Shown here in pieces: positions 16,591 to 40,366 of a stretch of DNA of 64,000 nucleotides; position 1 is the stretch's first letter, and every line of letters starts with the position of its first letter. Origin of the DNA: Eledone cirrhosa (lineage: Eukaryota). The notes beneath the pieces were generated by a model that was not told the origin of the DNA, ran no database searches, and worked only from the letters and a program-made list of their open reading frames with translations. The stretch is taken from contig OZ024754.1 of the NCBI GenBank assembly GCA_964016885.1, forward strand, positions 20,336,001 through 20,400,000, read 5' to 3'. The translations under genes and the position numbers were made by a program.

Positions 16591-16927
16591 TATGTAAAAG
16601 GTAAACAGAAATAACAACACAATAGGTACAGTATATGGAAGTTATATATTAGGTTAACGTTTGATATAGCAGGAAGATGGTCTTAACGTTTCGGGCGCTA
16701 GTCCTTCATCAGAAGAAAGAATGAGAAATGAAATAGATTGAGGGGACGGGCGGGATGGAATTGGAAAAAATGCCTATAGATAAAAATAACAGGTCCATTC
16801 ATGTTGAATCTCTTGCAAAACTGTTGGTGCTGGCGTTTTTGTGTATGATTTGTTTTTTAGAAAAGTGGATGATGACAGGCGTCTACCTGAAATGGAAAAA
16901 AAACCGTTTTGTAAAAACCACGTGCGT

Positions 16928-26699: not shown

Positions 26700-29600
26700 A
26701 TGTAAGGACTCCTCTTTATTTCATACGCGGATGGCTAACATAACCCCATCTCCCTCACCCCCTCCCTACACCTCCAACCCATCCCTTCCACCCACCAAAC
26801 GAAATCCAAAACTTCAGAGTTGGTACCATGAATGTAGGCACTTTAAAAGGTCGCTCTAACGAGGTTGTAGAGATGCTTGAACATTGCGTCCAAGAGACTA
26901 GGTGGAGGGGTGGGTCTGCTAGATTCATTGTGGGTAAAAAAACAATGCTATAAACTTTTCTGGGTGGGAAATGAAAATGGGCTGGGTGGAGTAGGAATTG
27001 TGTTAGCAGAAAAATGGGTAGATAAGGTAATTGACGTAAATAAAGTGAACGACAGAATAATCAAAGTAAGACTCGTCCTAAATAGAACTACTGTGACAAT
27101 AATATCCGCTTAAGCACCCCAATCTGGACTGCCAGGCGTTATAAAAAGACAGATTCTATGAGTCGCTAATGCTCACTACCTCCCAAATAACCGACAGTGA
27201 CTACATACTTATTGCTGGCGGCCTAAATGGTCATGTTGGACAACATTGTGATGGCTATGACGGAATCCATGGAGGCTACGGGTTTGATACCAGAAATGAG
27301 GAAGGCTTCAGAATCCTGGAATTCTCTGACGCTAATAACCTAACTATCTGTAACACAAACTTCAAAAAACGAGACAATCACTTGATCACCTATAGATCAG
27401 GAGAACACGCCAATAAGATAGATTATATCCTTACCAGAAGACGTGACAAAGTGTCTGATGTAAACACTAAATCCCTCCCCCGCGAAGAATGCACCTCCCA
27501 ACATAGCCTCATAGTTAGTGACCTCATAGTCAAGACGAGACGTACTCGACAACAGAGGAGGACTACCCTGAGAAGAAGAATATGGAAGTTAAAGGACCCC
27601 ACAGCCAGTAACAAATTTAAAAGCATGTTACTTGATGCTTTTGACAGTAAGGAAGAGCAATTAGAGACGTGCAGTATAGAGGAACAGTGGCAATTCCTGA
27701 AAGTTAACCTGCTGAAGGCGACAGATGAAATCTGTGGCTGCAGCAGACCTATAGGCAGGAGGAGAGTAACATGGTTGTGGAACAGTAAGGTGGAGGAGTC
27801 AATCTAGGCCAAAAAGCAAGCTTGGAAAGTATGGCGGGATGGGGAAGTAGAGAAGACTATCAAGTGGCCAGGAGGGAAGCTAGGAGATGAGACAAGTGTA
27901 CATTGCAAGAAGGGAAGCAGAGGAAAGAAAGTTCAAGCATGTTCTACAACGTGAGGACCAAAAATGTGAGGTCTTCAGGATTGCTAGACAATGTGTCAAG
28001 GAAAACCGTGATATTGTCGGGGAGAAGTGTGTCCGTAATGATGATGGTATACTTGCCATCACTGACACTGATAAGAAGGTAGCTTGGAAGTGTCACTACA
28101 AGAGGCTACTAAATGAGGAGAATAAATGGGAAAAAGATAGTCTGCCCCAAATCGATCCAATAGAGGGAGCAGCAGTGCTAGTTGAAGGTAGTATAATAAG
28201 TAAGGAAATCAAAGATATGAAGACAGGCAAGGCAGCTGGGTCTTCGGAGATAGTTGCTGAAATGCTGAAAGCATCTGGATCGGTGCGACATATTGTGGTC
28301 ACCCGGATAGTAAACCAAGTCATACAGAATGGGGTCATACCAAATGACTGGCGTAGCAGCATCATCATTAACTGCTACAAGGGTAAAGGAGATGCCTTAG
28401 ACAGGGGAAACTATAGAGGCATTAAATTAATTGACCAGGTCATGAAGGTCACAGAAAAAGTTATAGCGCAACTAATCAGAGAGCGAATTGATCTAGATGA
28501 AATGCAGTTTGGGTTTGTGTCAGGTAAAAGTACCACAGACGCTCTTTTCATTGTACGACAACTACAGATGTACCTAGCTAAAAGTAAACCCCTATACTTA
28601 GCTTTTGCTTGACAGAGTCCCCCGCTCCATTATCTGGTGGGCTCTTAGAAAACTAGGTGTTGATGAATGGCTTGTGAGAGCTATACAAGCCATGTATACA
28701 GAAACAGTCACCAAGGTTAGAATTAACAACGAATATAGTGAAGAATTTAGCGTAAAAGTTGGTGTTCATCAGGGCTCTGTCCTTAGCCCCCTCCTATTTA
28801 TTATTGCCCTTCCGGCTATAACAGAGGAGTTCAAGACCGGCTGCCCATGGGAACTTCTATATGCAGATGATCTAACGCTCATAGCTGAATCAATGGCTGA
28901 ACTAGAGAAGAAATTCCAAACATGGAAGCATGGCCTAGAATCAAAAGGCCTTAAAATTAACTTGTCTAAGACTAAAGTTCTAGTCTCTAGGAAAGAAAAT
29001 AGGGCACTGGTCCCCTCTGGGAAATGGCCATGCTCAGTGTGTAGGAAAGAAGTAGGCAGAAACTCCATTTTATGTCCCAAATGCAAAGTATGGGTGCATA
29101 AAAGATGTAGTGGGATCACAGGTAAGCTAACTAAGAACATAGATTTTATATGTGGCCGGTGCTCAGGTGCAATAAGTAGTAGCAAGTGCCCACAGGATAC
29201 TAGCTCCTTCCATTACCCAGATGGTTCTATAGAAATAGTGGACACCTTCCGTTACCTGGGTGACAAAATCAGCAGTGGTGGAGGGTGCTCTGAAAGTACA
29301 GTAGCCAGAGTCAGAACGGGATGGAAAAAGTTCAGAGAGCTTATACCACTATTGGCCGGAAAAAGGTTTGTCTCTAAAAATGAAAGGTAGACTGTATGAT
29401 GCCTGCATACGAACAGCAATGTTACATGGCAGTGAGACATGGGCATTGTGTGCAGAAGATCTGCGCAGACTGGAGAGGAATGAAGCTTGCATGCTCCGTT
29501 GGATGTGTAATAGTAATATACGTGAACGGCAAAGCATAAATGAACTAAGTGAGAAATTAGGAATAAGAGGGATCAGATGCTGTTTACTCGAGAGAAGACT

Positions 29601-30165
29601 ACGTTGGTATTGTCACGTGATGCGCATGAAAGACAACAGCTGCGTAAAGAAAAGTGCAGGGCGATCAAAATTGATGGAAGCTACGGAGTAGGCAGACCCA
29701 GAAAAACCTGGGACCATTTGATAAATTCCGACCTTACACACTTACACCTCTCCAAGATAATGTCACTGGACCGAGATCTTTGGCGCTACGCAGTAATACA
29801 GAAGTCCCGCCTTGCCTAAGTACAAAGCGAAACCTACAGTCAGTAGGCACCTCTTAACCAAAAATGCACCCCCATCCCACAACCCCTACCCCTATCTACA
29901 CCACCCCTTTCTCTGTAAAGTTATGTTGGTACCACTACATCCAGTCCTAAATAAATGAGGTCGTGTAGGTGTCACGACAAAAAAAACACACAGTCCACAC
30001 TGTAATGTGGTTGGTGTTAGGAAGGGCATCCAGCCGTAGAAAACCTGCCAGACAGTCCTATACGAGCAAGTCAACCAATCTTCCCTCAAGTGGGACAATT
30101 CCCGTCTAAATCCATGCTAGCGTGGAAGATAGACGTTAAAGGATGATGATGATGATGATGATGAT
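26700..30165 (+). mobile_element. RTE-clade LINE, near full length, disrupted (APE + RT with PHD-like insert; (GAT)n tail)
   Basis: VGTMNVGTL, QETRW, GGLNGHVG, IDYIL, SQHSLIV (APE); YKGKGD..NYRGIKL, QFGF, GVHQGSVLSPLLF, LLYADDL, FRYLG, HGSETW, GRPRKTW (RT); frameshifts and stops. Confidence 0.95.
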
Positions 30166-32549: not shown

Positions 32550-32907
32550 ATTAGTTTAGCGAGGTTTTTTATATGAAATCGTGTGTCGAAACAAATATTG
32601 TGATACTTGGGGAGGGTCATATTTGTGTAATATTGCCAGTAAATAAAATAAAATAAAATAAAATAAGATAAATAAATACATACACAAGCACAATAACAAC
32701 AAGCACATAAACACACACTAGTCACCCAGCAGACACAACACTATACACACTAGTCACACAGCAAACGTAACACTATACACACACGCAAACGTATGCGCAA
32801 AGAAGACAAAATAAAATAAACAAACAAGCAAATAAATAAATAAATATATAGACAGACTGAATAAAAAATGGCGTAGACATACAATGCAACAGGAGGAAAA
32901 GATATAA

Positions 32908-32950
32908 TACCACTGACGATGTTGCAGATGCGCAACGAAAGATTTATGTA
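32908..32950 (+). ncRNA. Minimal hammerhead motif in the left pLTR (copy at ~37014-37056)
   Basis: CTGACGA-TGTTGC agatgc GCAAC-GAAA-gatt-TA-TGTA; weak helix I. Confidence 0.65.
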
Positions 32951-33123
32951 AATTATGTAAACTATATATATGTGTTTGTGTCTATATTGTATCTGTATTA
33001 TTTTTGACCGTCGGTCAGTCAATGGCAACATTGAGGACCGATTAAGTTAGATCGCAGCGAGTAGCGAAAACCAACCAAACAGTGAGTGTGTTCTGTTATT
33101 AATTCTGGCAATATTACACAAAT

Positions 33124-36100
33124 ATGACCCTCCCCAAGTATAACAATATTTGTTTCGACACACGATTTCATATAAAAAACCTCGCTAAACTAATTCATCG
33201 CCGCTACGGCATTAGCTTGTGCCAAGCTGAAAGGTTATTGAAAGACACTGTTTTCTGTTGTATAAAAACTACAATAACAACAGAACAAATCCGCTTCTTA
33301 AAACACTGTGTTTCCTCCAAAACATACACAACAAACATATCAAAACAAGTAAATAATTTATTATTGAACAAAACACAAGCCGAACGACTAAAACACACAA
33401 TAACAGTTAATATGAAAAGAACAACATACACAAAAGTCAACGCACTCTACAGACAGAAACGCATTAACGGTAAAGAAATCCGAAATCTCATCACACCAAA
33501 CGAGAGAGATAACTTCATGAGCGCCATCAGACGTGAAACGAAATACGCTCAAAACGAATGCAATAGGCATTTCAAGAAGAAATTAGAATGGATGAATAAG
33601 AAAAAACTACAAGAAAGGAAAACCGAATATTCTCAAAAATACCCAGATAACATCGACAATATCCGTATGACTGATGTAAAACTACCGGAAGAATTTACCA
33701 ATGACCACACAGTAAATATCTATGGGAACACTTTAATCAGTGAACAAGAACAACAAATCCTACGGTTACCACCAAAATTTGCCATCTACAAAAAGATTAA
33801 CCCTATGGAGTGCAAAACGGAACTGGAAAAGTGTTTCACAAAAATACGTTGGAATGCAAAGCTAAACAACAACAACAATAATAACGGTAGTAGTAATATA
33901 AACAATAACTCTGGGTATAGAAATAACAGCCATAACCATAACAATGACAGGAAAGTGAGAAATAGTGATAATGGTAATAATACTAGCGATAGACAGAACA
34001 ACAACAACCACAATAATAATAATAATAGAAACATTAACCACAGACACAGCAGCAGCGACCACAGTAGTAATAACGGTAACAATACGAACAACAACAACAA
34101 TAACCACAGTGGTAATAATGGAAATAGTACATGTAGCAACATCAACAAAAACAAGAAACATAATAATAGTAACAACCACAATGGTAGAAATAACAGTAAC
34201 AACAACAACAATAACGGTGAAGTAAACAACAATACATCTAGCAATCATAACAATAATAATAATGCTAATGATAGAAACAACAACCACCCTGATAACAACA
34301 ATAGCAACACACACAACTATGACGATAGATATAATGACAACCCCTTAGAGAAACTATTTTTCAACCCAGCTGACAAAACATATAAGATGGGTAATATCTA
34401 TCCTACGAGGTTACCCTTTAATAAAAGAGTTTGCATACCACAGCAAATAGATGACGAGACAGAGGCACAGTTCACCATAGCTAGAAATAAGATTAGACAA
34501 GTAGTAGACAGGTATACTAAGAGACAGAGCAGACCAGAGGCCCAACAACTTGGGAGGAAACCTGTAGAAGGCTTGGTTAGCCTCAAGCAGCGCACAAGGG
34601 ATGGTGAGGTAGTGTGTCTACCCACAGATAAGTCTGGTAGGATGTCAATAGATAGCATGCCGAACTACATCGAGGCTATGCAACCCCACATCACCAACAC
34701 GAGCGAAGTTGCACAACAAACACACGATGGGAGAGAAAAAATCCTCAACGCTCACATGATGATGTGGACTGACATCCTAAAGCCAAGCAGACGCACTGCC
34801 AACAACTTCCAGGCGTCTAACAATGGCATACCACCCTTGTACGGGCTCCGCAAAGACCACAAGACAGTCGACGACCCGACAACAGGACCATCAACAAGAC
34901 CCGTATGCGGAGTTAATATAGCTAGCAACTACAGGATCTCCTACTTCCTCTCGATGGTTATACGCCCCATAATCAAGATGTCCCCAGATGTATGTGAAAG
35001 TACAGAGGACCTCCTCAGCAGAATCAGTGAGTGCAACAAAAACAGGAGCCTATCCAACTGCATAATAGGCAGCATGGATGTGGTGTCACTGTACCCATCC
35101 ATTAACATTGATTTTGCTGTGAAAAGATGTGTGGAGATGATCATCGAGAGTGAGGTGGAGTTCTGCGACGTCGACACAGACGAACTGGGCCTCCTACTTA
35201 GACTTACCTACGACACTGACTACCTAGACAGCCATGACCTTAGATGTTTCTGCCCTAGTAGACCTATAAGAGGTAGACCCCCACCATAACCTCAATGGCA
35301 AAAAAGAATCCCATGGGAAGGTGGATTGGGTGGACCAAAGCTATACGGACCCCCCAAAACAATGATCAGGTAAGAAAAATGGTCGCACATGCAATAGGGG
35401 CTAGTATCAAAACTACCCTAAAGGGCCACATATTTAAGTTCAATGAGAAAATCTACACCCAAAATGAGGGAGCAGCCAATGGCGTCAGCATAGCTGGTGA
35501 TGTTGCCAACCTTTTCATGGTATGGTGGGAAAGGAGACTTAAAGATCTCCTTAACGAAAGCTCCATAGACCTCATCATGTACTCTCGTTATGTAGACGAT
35601 ATCAATATAGTTATAAGAACACCCCCACTAGAGAGCACTAACAAGTTTGAATTAGAACGTAGCACGATGGAAAGCATCCAGCAGATAGCTAATTCCATAC
35701 ACCAGAGTATAACTGTAACTATCGACTTCCCTTCCAAACACCCTAACAATAGACTACCTGTATTAGACACAGAACTCTGGATTAACACTATAGACGAGGG
35801 AGCCCAAATTCTCCACTCACACTATGCTAAACCCATGGCCTCCAAATACCTGATACTCAAAAACTCAGCAATGTCCAGTAGTGCTAAGTTTAATATTCTG
35901 ATCGCAGATTTGGTACGAGTGATGAAGAATGTGTCCAGCATGTGCGACCCAACAGAAATGGAAAGACACATTCAACACTTCATCAACTGCATGCAGTTCT
36001 CTGGCTACAACCAAAGAGACAGAGTCAGAGTATACGAAGGAGCCATGGAAAAGTATAAGACCCTCATAGAATTGGACATGAAAGGAATTTGCCCATTATA

Positions 36101-36745
36101 CAGGAACAAATCATGGAATAGCTTAGATATGGCTAGACATAAGATAGGGAAGGCCACATCATGGTACGACAACCAGAGATATCAGAGTGTCATGTTTGTG
36201 GACGCCACCCCTGGAGGGAAATTAGCTAACCAGTGTAGAAAGGCCCTGAGAAAGACCCACTTAAAAATAAAGGTGGTAGAAAAGCCAGGAACCACCATAA
36301 AATCCATGATCAGCAAAACCTACCCCTTTAAGAAAACCCACTGTACCAATAGGAAATGTATCATATGTAAGGTGAACCCCCGGATAAACTGTAAAACTAG
36401 AAACGTAGTCTATAGCATAAGATGTACAGAGGGTACTTGCAGAAACATGACAACAACATACATAGGCGAAACAGCTCGTAGCATAGGTGAAAGGATAGAC
36501 CAACACTGGGGGAACTAAAAGGACGAAAAAACGGGTCAGTACTATACGAACATGCTAGACAACAACATGACGGTAACATAGACAACATAGAAATTAGAAT
36601 AATATCTAAACATAGGAATGACCCAGCAGATAGGCAAATCAGAGAGGCCAGTAAAATAGAAATTAGAAGACCAAAGCTAAACAGAAAGAATGAGTGGAAC
36701 AACAACAACACCCAAACAAACAACACTGACCTAAGAGAAGTATAA
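33124..36745 (+). CDS. PLE RT/GIY-YIG polyprotein with two apparent -1 frameshifts (~35280, ~36510)
   Basis: PTDKSGRM, TRPVCG, GSMDVVSLYPSI, GAANGVSIAG, YSRYVDD, LPVLDTELW, MQFSGY, CxxxxCxxC, VVYSIRC..YIGETARSIGERIDQH; collinear with the 51.2-54.5 kb copy. Confidence 0.9.
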
Positions 36746-37266
36746 ATAAGTAAATTAAATAAAATAAAATAAGATAAATAAATACATACACAAGCACAAT
36801 AACAACAAGCACATAAACACACACTAGTCACCCAGCAGACACAACACTATACACACCAGTCACACAGCAAACGTAACACTATACACACACGCAAACGCAT
36901 GCGCAAAGAAGACAAAATAAAATAAACAAACAAGCAAATAAATAAATAAATATATAGACAGACTGAATAAAAAATGGCGTAGACATACAACACAACAGGA
37001 GGAAAAAATATAACACCACTGACGATTTTGCAGATGTGCAACGAAAGATTTATGTAAATTATGTAAACTATATATATGTGTTTGTGTCTATATTGTATCT
37101 GTATTATTTTTGACCGTCGGTCAGTCAATGGCAACATTGAGGACCGATTAAGTTAGATCGCAGATATAAAAGACAGCGAGAAGCGAAAACCAACCAAACA
37201 TTGAGTGTGTTCTGTTATTAATTCTGGCAATATTACACAAATATGACCCTCCCCAAGTATAACAAT

Positions 37267-38670
37267 ATATATATGTATATGTATATATATGAATATATAT
37301 TATATATATATATATATGTATATATATTATATATATAATATATTATATATATATATATATAGGTATATATATATGTATATATAATATATATATAAATATA
37401 TATATGTATATATATAATATATTATATATATATATGTATATATATATGTATATATAATATATATATAAATATATATATGTATATATATGTGTATATATAA
37501 TATATATATAAATATATAAAATATATATATATGTATATATATGTATATATGTATATATATGTATATATATATATATGAATATTATATATATATATATATA
37601 TGTATATATATAATATATTATATATATATATATGTATATATATATGTATATATAATATATATATAAATATATAAAATATATATTATATATATAAAATATA
37701 TATTATATATATAAAATATATATTATATATATAATATATTATATATATATATGTATATATATTATATATATAATATATATATATGTATATATATGTATAT
37801 ATGTATATATATAATATATTATATATATATATGTATATATATATGAATATATATTATATATATAATATATATTATATATATATGTATATATATATGTATA
37901 TATATTATATATTATATATATATATGTATATATATATGAATATATATTATATATATTATATATTATATATATATGTATATATATGAATATATATATCATA
38001 TATATATTATATATATAATATATATATATGTATATATATGTATATATATTATATATATAATATATATATATGTATATATATGTATATATATTATATATAT
38101 TATATATGTATATATATATATATGAATATATATTATATATATAATATATTATATATATATATATGTATATATATTATATATATATATATATGTATATATA
38201 TTATATATATATATGTATATATATGTATATATATATATATGAATATATATTATATATATATGTATATATATTATATATATAATATATTATATATATAATA
38301 TATTATATATATATATATATATGAATATATATTATATATATAATATATTATATATATATATATATATCTGTATATATATTATATATATAATATATTATAT
38401 ATATATATATATATGTATATATATGTATATATAATATATATATAAATATATAAAATATATATTATATATATAATATATTATATATATATATGCATATATA
38501 TATATGTATATGTGTATATATATATATATATAGGTATATATATATGTATATATATTATATATATAATATATTATATATATATATGTATATATATGTATAT
38601 ATAATATATATATAAATATATAAAATATATATTATATATATAATATATATATAAATTATAAAATATATTA
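37267..38670. repeat. (TA)n-derived array
   Basis: Direct. Confidence 0.97.
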
Positions 38671-38863
38671 AGTTAAAAATGTACATCTACATATGCATAC
38701 TGAAATACTAGTATGCATATGAATACACACACGTATACATATGTAGATGTACCAAGTATTTCACTGGTTACTTTACTGTGAGTATCCAGCTATTCTGTAT
38801 GTAAACACACAGACAAACCGGTTTTTAGAGTCATACTGGTTTTTGAGGAAACACCTTTCCTCT

Positions 38864-38959
38864 ATTCTCCAGAAAGCCAGACAAGGAATATTGAACTAGT
38901 TTCGTTGTTGTTACAACTCATCAGCAATATTTACCTATCTACCGGCCTTTCTGGAGAAT
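38864..38959 (-). ncRNA. Type I hammerhead with extended helix I
   Basis: Minus strand AATATTG-CTGATGA-GTTG taacaa CAAC-GAAAC-TA-GTT-CAATATT, closed distally by ATTCTCCAGAAA/TTTCTGGAGAAT. Confidence 0.8.
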
Positions 38960-39129
38960 CGTAAAAGCACATATCGTTATATGCTTTTTCTATGAAAATT
39001 AGTAGTGGGCAGACTAATTTGCATAGAGTGTGAGTACGTACCGGTTCAACGGAGACGATAAAAACAAATAACGAAACGAAATTAAATTTCGTTTCGTTTG
39101 TAACTCACTGCTGAGGGAACACGTCCCAT

Positions 39130-40045
39130 CTGACTCGTCGGGTTTGTTGGAGAGGCATCTTCGCAGCGAAGGTCCTGTGTGGGCCAAATGTATGACATGG
39201 CTAATTTAACCATAGTGACCATTCACAGCCTACGGCCTGCTATCTTCACACACACGCACGTATATGCATACCCATACGCATACACACACTCACATCTATA
39301 TTTATACACGCACACATGTTTTTACAACCTACCACCTTTCACACCCTTTGATTTCCAGCTTCTACAGCCCACTATCTTTCACACACACACGCACTCACAC
39401 ATATACACACACAGTTACACACACATGTATACCCATACGCTTACACACACACATCTATATTTATACACGCACACATGTTTTACAACCTACCACCTTTCAC
39501 ACCCTTTGATTTCCAGCTTCTACAGCCCACTATCTTTCACACACACACACACTCACACATATACACACTTACACTTATACACACACAGTTACACACACAT
39601 ATATATTTACACACACATATCTTACGGCTTTCACACGCTAGCGCACCCTCTTGATTTAACCCATTTGGTCAGTAGCTTTTGCCACAGCCTATCACACGCA
39701 CGCTCATTCTTTCCCTCGTTTAAATTTTAAATAATTTTCTCCCCATAACGGCATTCCTGTCTTAACGACATCACAACTTTCTCCGCTTGGTCTGTCCCCC
39801 CCCCCCTTTGGAACTCTCCCCCGTTGATGGGCTTGAGCCCGAAATATTGGGATTAAATCTCCACTACGGTAACCCTTCTACCTTTGTTTTGTTTTCATCT
39901 TTGTCTCTCTCAATTTTCACTTTCACCTGTTTCTCCTATCTATCATTCACTTCCTACCTCGAGATTTCCCTCTGCATTGTTGTGGCTTTCTTAACTACGT
40001 ATTTTACACATTTCACAATGCTTCAAGCAAACTTTAACACCCTCT
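39130..40045 (+). mobile_element. Probable PLE 3' UTR/pLTR remnant with internal ~160 bp duplication
   Basis: 39285-39430 resembles 39445-39590; degenerate hammerhead TTGATG-GG cttgag CCC-GAAA at ~39824-39845. Confidence 0.5.
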
Positions 40046-40122
<77 letters not shown>

Positions 40123-40277
40123 GTATATATATACATATATATATATATGTATATATATACATATATATACATATATATATGTATATATATATATACATAT
40201 ATATGTATGTATATATATATACATATATATGTATGTATATATATATACATATATATATATGTATTTATATATATATG

Positions 40278-40318
<41 letters not shown>

Positions 40319-40335
40319 ATATATATATATATGTG

Positions 40336-40366
<31 letters not shown>

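Follow-up and report, generated by a model that had tools for sequence, protein, structure and literature searches.

A recently amplified retrozyme family with a predicted self-cleaving hammerhead in Eledone cirrhosa, probably copied by Penelope elements into TA microsatellites

The locus

The window analysed here is a 64,000-nt stretch of the Eledone cirrhosa genome (GenBank assembly GCA_964016885.1, contig OZ024754.1, positions 20,336,001 to 20,400,000, forward strand), and coordinates given without a locus name refer to it. As read from the sequence, its minus strand carries a clipped copy of a 466-nt ORF-free repeat with a hammerhead ribozyme that is predicted to cut itself (Table 1). The copy comprises 443 of the 466 nt (unit positions 251-466 followed by 1-227), is clipped at its 5' end with the loss of 23 nt, and differs at 2 positions from one unit in locus L034. 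Since it holds a single hammerhead, the window copy alone would release no unit-length RNA.

The first-pass annotation had described a stand-alone module at 38760..39115 to which no Penelope element (PLE) ORF was attached. The boundary shared by copies across the genome sets the extent at 39109-38667 instead, and the 20-bp hairpin at 38681-38752 had been overlooked. The copy is neither stand-alone nor free of PLE sequence, its 5' end being fused to ORF sequence of the family PLE-X at 39110-39197. A near-intact PLE does lie nearby, as had been noted; it belongs to the family PLE1 and ends at ~37266, across a TA-rich tract and 1.4 kb away rather than 1.6 kb. Elsewhere in the window, 27145-29691 holds a frameshifted non-LTR retrotransposon with endonuclease-like and RT frames, which is putatively of the RTE family and has many close copies in the fetched flanks.

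Table 1. Positions of the retrozyme copy, its parts and the adjoining features in the window
Feature	Position	Strand	Basis or remark
5'-clipped retrozyme copy	38667..39109	-	Genome matches, unit alignment
Type I hammerhead	38887..38931	-	Motif, Rfam HH9 match below gathering, covariation
Extended helix I arm including 13-bp distal stem	38864..38959	-	Folding; changes at unit pairs 20-411 and 24-407
Two back-to-back hairpins	38963..39026	-	Folding
13-14-bp hairpin directly 5' of start site B	39070..39098	-	Folding
Terminus B (unit position 302)	39058	-	Internal in the window copy; joined to (TA)n in other copies
20-bp hairpin directly 5' of start site A	38681..38752	-	Folding
Terminus A (unit position 227), joined to TA-rich tract	38667	-	Junction mapping
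TA-rich microsatellite tract, target common to the window copy and the neighbouring PLE1	37267..38666	.	
PLE-X ORF stretch (88 nt, from the RT/GIY-YIG linker), joined to the retrozyme at its 5' end	39110..39197	-	
Inverted PLE-X arm: ORF end and pLTR, up to the long (tailed) PLE-X terminus in (TA)n	39193..40046	+	
Neighbouring frameshifted PLE (PLE1 family)	32550..37266	+	Outside the element; second candidate partner

Repeat unit and copy number

The genome search that had been proposed as a check returned dozens of 99-100% matches sharing the boundary at 39109, many of them 466 bp apart. Measured from cut to cut, the unit is 466 nt long, is arranged head-to-tail and contains one type I hammerhead; its GC content is 35% and its longest stop-free frame 60 aa. 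Full units numbered 223, drawn from 57 of 117 loci, and arrays reach ~50 units. At G000:C1:95942300-95966300, ~50 units stand on one arm and 2 on the other. Exact hammerhead cores were counted genome-wide in two helix-II-compensated forms (4,843 and 4,081, total 8,924; reversed-pattern controls, 0). Exact junctions of terminus B with (TA)n numbered 1,934, so that there are at least 1,934 insertions. For terminus A the corresponding figure was 1,776, but overlapping matches raise it and it covers one subfamily, so that it is not set beside that for B. One 496-nt contig (466+30) from run X4 forms a closed assembly cycle, which tandem DNA yields as well.

No LTR arrangement was found in the mapped loci. 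A tRNA-derived or Pol III-transcribed SINE was considered and rejected: ARAGORN predicted 0 tRNAs in 38000-41000, simple A/B box patterns gave 0 matches, and four internal runs of T4-5 in the unit argue against transcription by Pol III. No promoter was found. The reading as a retrozyme is borne out by an ORF-free 466-nt tandem unit with one hammerhead each, by thousands of near-identical copies and by compensatory changes in the ribozyme. In its sequence features the element falls within the definition of metazoan non-LTR retrozymes, and is a further member of that known class; the family is recently amplified.

Related repeats were seen at several loci. A sister retrozyme family, 70-78% alike in patches, occurs at L137:2260-2790 and L047:2690-3250 and also in L183, L069, L062, L120, L106, L162 and L159; its modules are ordered as in the main family, its site is GUA, the basal pair of helix II is U-U, and its ends lie at positions structurally equivalent to A and B. 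A third hammerhead family (L012:3110-3164, minus strand) has a different palindromic helix III, and its helices I and II are fully re-paired. At L194:2241-3225 (minus strand), four hammerhead-core-like motifs lie exactly 310 bp apart, possibly a further tandem family.

Hammerhead and RNA fold

The minus-strand type I hammerhead reported for the window copy is present, with helix I at 38931-38925/38893-38887, CUGAUGA at 38924-38918, a 4-bp helix II (GUUG/CAAC), GAAA at 38903-38900, a palindromic helix III of 2 bp, and a GUU site with the predicted cut at 38894/38893, as claimed. Helix I is extended by a distal stem of 13 bp (38959-38947/38876-38864) where 12 bp had been given. The hairpins at 38963-38988 and 38990-39026 were confirmed, and that at 39070-39098 also stands, although the supposed perfect 14-bp stem is a 14-bp inverted repeat around 1 nt that folds as 13 bp with a 3-nt loop. 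Folding of 38760-39115 gave z-scores of -8.4 (minus strand) and -7.4 (plus strand), with 0 of 100 shuffles as good.

At the Rfam gathering threshold there were 0 matches in the whole window. Hammerhead_HH9 (RF02275) matched 38871-38942 with an E-value of 7.2e-8 and 38.6 bits, against a gathering score of 52. Matches to miRNA and sraA models at the Rfam E-value threshold were rejected as generic hairpin matches. Folded as a circle, the 466-nt unit has a predicted energy of -157.6 kcal/mol (z -13.9 vs 40 shuffles) with 316 of 466 nt paired. The hammerhead core is absent from the minimum-energy fold and lies 1.5 kcal/mol above it; the 2-nt helix III loop is outside the folding model.

Covariation among copies, which the first-pass annotation had named as a test, is present in two sets of sequences. 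Among 55 distinct units, 7 of 158 predicted pairs show changes on both sides, and several pairs are plainly broken; a U-A to A-U flip in helix II occurs in 19 of the 55, and six other pairs are altered on both sides. Unit pairs 20-411 and 24-407, in the helix I arm, show compensatory or wobble changes. Across 12 hammerheads of the main, sister and third families the core does not vary and two-sided changes occur in 8 of 14 pairs, a figure equalled in 1 of 500 shuffles and set against 0-4 in slid controls, though relatedness of the sequences inflates such counts. Cleavage sites are of the GUU form at 80 loci and of the GUC form at 31; GUU is the slower hammerhead site of the two.

Insertion structure

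Most loci consist of two inverted arms, often tandem arrays, whose 3' ends face outward into (TA)n. The outer ends fall at fixed unit positions, A at 227-233 and B at 302 (in a few cases 298-301), and a long hairpin lies immediately 5' of each. End pairing was scored in 27 loci picked by hammerhead in genome order, a choice that places no selection on the ends: 20 were AB, 1 AA, 0 BB and 6 one-ended, so that 20 of 21 two-ended loci pair A with B, for which the probability under free end choice is about 1e-5. One of these AB calls (L040) depends on a very short stub. In all 116 clusters, where later samples were mostly chosen by the B end, there were 86 AB, 4 called BB and 1 AA, the last with a mirrored flank; the remaining 25 had at most one end called. 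On inspection the 4 called BB proved to be A stubs. Duplicates (L006, L013, L023, L086), the flank-only locus L037 and clusters touching a locus edge were set aside; L097, a duplicate of L096, was left out of the mutation tests and is counted within the 86 AB.

A direct repeat abutting both junctions was informative in 8 of 85 AB loci (shuffled pairs: mean 0.2, maximum 1), most flanks being pure TA. Its length was 6-8 nt in five loci and 23, 24 and 39 nt in the others. No duplication was found at L028, L107 and L115, where the TA tract is interrupted within 5 nt of the junction. At L106 and L038 the flanks are duplicated over ~40 nt, far above the 6-8 nt found elsewhere.

The joints between inverted arms are mostly overlaps of a few bases and are scattered all round the unit. 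In four loci (L049, L131, L062 and L052) the two arms carry the same private variants, with 0-0.7 differences vs 3-4 elsewhere: 18 units (6+12) at L049 show 0 differences vs 4 to the nearest other locus, arms of 3+3 units at L131 show 0 vs 4 to other loci, and arms of 10+10 units at L062 show 0.7 vs 3.4. Heterogeneous arrays also occur (L085, L108, L119, L129 and L071), in which arm-to-arm distances are near those between loci. Higher-order periods were found at L031 (3-4 units, lag 4) and L059 (2 units, lag 2), with one core-mutant hammerhead per dimer period at L059 and one mutant per 3-4 units at L031. The notion that arrays with a multimer period need all but one hammerhead dead was dropped, as it fits L059 alone and is contradicted by L031. 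Between the two end types, arm length showed no clear difference (medians 458 vs 568, p 0.08, n 46).

About a fifth of the clusters are one-armed, several of them joined to unrelated DNA. At L098:907-970, L116:941-960 and L065, one arm is joined to an inverted copy of the flanking DNA, which suggests that a (TA)n target end can snap back and prime itself. L098 had been considered as a retrozyme/PLE1 chimera and was rejected, the join being a fold-back copy of adjacent DNA.

The inverted 5'-truncated arm, the one-sided tail and the (TA)n target are features of Penelope-type insertion, with a tail (the A-to-B offset) of 69-75 nt that is longer than described; in PLE1 and PLE-X it is 41-57 nt. 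Judged from the junction positions, the A/B pairing in two inverted arms is the Penelope 'tail' signature.

Penelope elements and the window fusion

PLE-X is a young family with two precise ends 41 nt apart and with matches to RVT_1 and GIY-YIG. In PLE1, whose copies are 99% identical, one end is precise and the other varies, lying 41-57 nt beyond it. Both families share the two-ended inverted (TA)n anatomy of the retrozyme, and from this resemblance a PLE likely mobilises it, for which we consider the evidence good. Homology between the retrozyme and the pLTRs of PLE1, PLE2 and PLE-X was absent beyond chance words of 10-14 nt, and no homology to 60 PLE loci was found beyond the window copy and a sister family. 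When the 20-mer at the short start of PLE-X was compared with the circle, its best position was A233 (13/20, rank 1 of 466); because six sites were compared, and the variable end of PLE1 gave 11/20 at A227, this match is only suggestive.

The retrozyme is fused directly to PLE coding sequence in 2 of 120 clusters, the window copy and L077, which involve different PLEs and different unit positions. At L077:1789-3100 a retrozyme arm and a 38-nt inverted piece are fused directly to the RT region of a PLE from a third family that contains stops; this fusion is ambiguous. At 39109/39110 in the window, the retrozyme 5' end passes with 1-nt microhomology into 88 nt of PLE-X ORF on the same strand, the PLE-X part inverts at ~39195, and its arm runs to the long terminus at 40046, so that a retrozyme A end is paired with a PLE-X long end. 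No contig bridging this fusion was present among the sequencing-run matches listed.

Either a template switch, giving a single chimeric insertion, or a later deletion could explain the fusion. A deletion joining two separate insertions in one TA tract stands only a little short of an even chance, in which case the junction would not indicate the partner; PLE1 is equally young. PLE ends often lie in the same TA tracts as the retrozyme, no target duplication flanks 38667-40046, and the pairing of an A end with a long end is expected half the time by chance; in addition, the one-armed clusters on unrelated DNA offer precedents, and the joins at L098 and L116, which look much the same, are flanking DNA folded back. 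Against a deletion stand the common strand, the microhomology, the complementary types of the two ends, the youth of both families and the start-site resemblance at A233. PLE-X is the better-supported partner enzyme at roughly even probability, PLE1 or another family making up the remainder.

Over the whole window, the hammerhead core pattern has 26 matches (overlaps included) vs 2.3 expected. The elements at 32550-37266 and 51230-54872 are related PLEs with long Asn-rich N-terminal inserts that end in (TA)n ~30 nt into the next ORF start, and their pLTRs each have a hammerhead-like core (32913, 37019, 54682). The PLE-X pLTR has a minimal hammerhead-like motif with a non-canonical core at 39817-39845. 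A PLE-like element with inverted arms at 40394-44050 contains hammerhead-core-like motifs at 40511-40561 (minus strand) and 43935-43990 (plus strand) and a long inverted repeat (41308-41453/41904-42049). Further core matches lie near PLE-like fragments at 16673-16712 (minus), 49891-49926 (plus), 55853-55910 (minus) and 58718-58775 (minus).

A>G changes among copies

Among distinct rare alleles that every unit of a locus carries, there are 21 A>G vs 3 T>C changes on the sense strand, 9 of the 21 coming from L103; rare alleles in single units show 25 vs 32. With all multi-unit alleles pooled the counts are 25 vs 8 (Fisher p 0.004 vs single-unit). An allele present throughout a locus is one that its template would have carried, and the skew may be read as the trace of an RNA stage. 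At L103, A>G makes up 14 of 30 derived changes, of which 13 are in both units within unit positions 314-432 and 12 are preceded by U or A; in the window copy this region corresponds to the hairpins at 38963-39026 and the 5' strand of the helix I arm. At L102, 8 of 10 changes are A>G. Polarised by neighbours and with L103 left out, the counts are 47 vs 20 (p 0.0006). A vote by locus on A>G excess is weak (12 vs 7, 20 ties), and the sum over all rare alleles is 53 vs 40 (p 0.15). There was no enrichment of A>G at paired positions (15/25 vs 94/149). After adjustment for base composition, rare alleles of PLE1 and PLE-X show no A>G excess (25:12 on A:T of 790:396, and 20:21), a control that is unmatched to the template-borne class. 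ADARs have neighbour preferences and are highly active in cephalopods. From the pattern of these alleles, ADAR editing appears the likeliest cause of the skew; a polymerase error bias is possible.

Proposed mechanism and alternatives

The element is probably best seen as a recently amplified retrozyme that is predicted to cleave itself and form a circle, and that PLEs likely copy into TA microsatellites. Tandem arrays would be transcribed, successive hammerheads would cut at GUU or GUC, and the monomer would be ligated into a structured circle. From the insertion anatomy, a PLE enzyme may then make a staggered cut in (TA)n, whose two DNA 3' ends would prime on same-sense RNA, one at A (227-233) and one at B (302). 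Each cDNA would roll round the template for a few bases to tens of units, and microhomology would join the two. The expected outcome, two inverted arms with one A end, one B end and shared private variants, matches the observed loci.

A fuller version of this scheme is doubtful, and we offer it tentatively. It would have a dimeric PLE-X act on one circular RNA at two structure-defined starts, with each strand of the (TA)n cut assigned one of them and two rolling-circle reverse transcriptions fusing head to head. The window junction would be the fossil of a switch between retrozyme and PLE-X, and ADAR edits would be written back into DNA, feeding the evolution of stems from A-U through G-U to G-C.

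PLEs might instead copy linear read-through transcripts of arrays, with the hammerhead slow or dispensable, no circle, and long arrays arising by later unequal crossing-over; we consider this rather unlikely. The predominance of the slower GUU site agrees with it, as do the higher-order periods at L031 and L059 and the heterogeneous arrays. According to the available text of Frangieh et al. (2024, PMC11167929), moreover, hammerhead cleavage was dispensable for insertion in vitro. Arms that are both multimeric and identical (L049, L131, L062), however, are not readily explained by growth after insertion, and the core is invariant across three diverged families whose helices are compensated. The dimer period at L059 with one core-mutant hammerhead is also what a dimer circle would be expected to leave.

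A solo or tandem pLTR belonging to some autonomous PLE so far unseen is a very improbable reading, and the first-pass alternative of a very structured solo pLTR is disfavoured with it. The window copy and L077 do abut PLE coding sequence, the loci examined are ~120 of ~2,000, and the text available from Li, Clavereau and Pollet (2026, 10.64898/2026.07.22.740005) gives matches to annotated TEs for 24 of 57 Xenopus retrozyme families, almost always at pLTRs. Regular attachment to PLE ORFs had been expected of an ordinary pLTR, yet 118 of the 120 clusters have no ORF joined and the two fusions differ in PLE and unit position; this, together with the lack of meaningful similarity to the three neighbouring pLTRs, argues against a solo pLTR. 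Least probable of all is a satellite or MITE-like element that folds back as DNA and has a ribozyme motif by chance. Palindromic insertions and the DNA fold-backs at some junctions (L065, L098, L116) would suit it, but the arms are unequal and of random length, the fixed ends are asymmetric, the ribozyme covaries and the A>G excess is specific to the sense strand.

Relation to known systems

The metazoan non-LTR retrozymes of Cervera and de la Pena (2020, PMC7229834), as far as the available text describes them, are alike in their ORF-free tandem units with a type I hammerhead each, low GC, thousands of copies and a highly paired predicted circle. At 466 nt the present unit is at or above their range of 150-450 bp, mussel (mollusc) retrozymes being 350-390 bp. 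Circles were found experimentally there and are predicted here. The mobiliser was left as a proposal, with PLEs named as likely, and two-armed insertions, fixed A and B ends and (TA)n targeting, as seen here, have no counterpart in the available account. The vertebrate retrozymes of Li et al. are alike in their co-occurrence with PLEs, their range from monomers to long arrays, and the proposal of PLE machinery. In the portion of that work available, the link to PLEs is drawn through pLTR homology, of which none was found here, local tandem growth is invoked, no insertion ends are analysed and no mollusc is sampled; 1 of 9 predicted Xenopus dimers was cleaved. Neither source, to the extent available, gives an account of A/B partition or of editing in genomic copies.

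Hallmarks of PLEs include a truncated arm in inverted orientation, a one-sided tail of 30-40 bp and a (TA)n bias (Craig et al. 2021, PMC8557442, available text), and Frangieh et al. report, in the part available, that the tail comes from two internal RT starts and that both target strands are cut and extended. The retrozyme is alike in its inverted 5'-truncated arm, its extension at one end, its two RT starts and its (TA)n bias. It differs in having no ORF and in a tail of 69-75 nt vs 30-40 nt, and its two starts are split one per arm, whereas the start site in vitro was equal between strands in the same part of Frangieh et al.

Rfam Hammerhead_HH9 matches over its full length with type I topology; the window hammerhead differs in its shorter palindromic helix III and its sub-gathering score. 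In L1 twin priming, two target ends prime on the RNA and an inverted insertion results. The retrozyme resembles it in two-ended priming and an inverted product, and differs in a second start at a fixed site, the lack of poly(A), and arms that can both be multimeric. A literature search brought up neither a retrozyme from a cephalopod nor an A-to-I footprint in genomic copies of one, though supplements or subscription papers may hold one.

Significance

The class of element was already known. These copies bear on two questions, the identity of the enzyme that copies animal retrozymes into DNA and the reason for the inverted arm and one-sided tail of Penelope insertions. On these, the portions of the cited literature available contribute co-occurrence, pLTR homology and a single in vitro system. 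The present young family has ~2,000 insertions, which nearly always pair the two start sites, share variants between arms and bear a possible editing footprint. It supplies a defined RNA and its target, two mapped start sites and two candidate enzymes, so that the question could be put directly to the published PLE assay.
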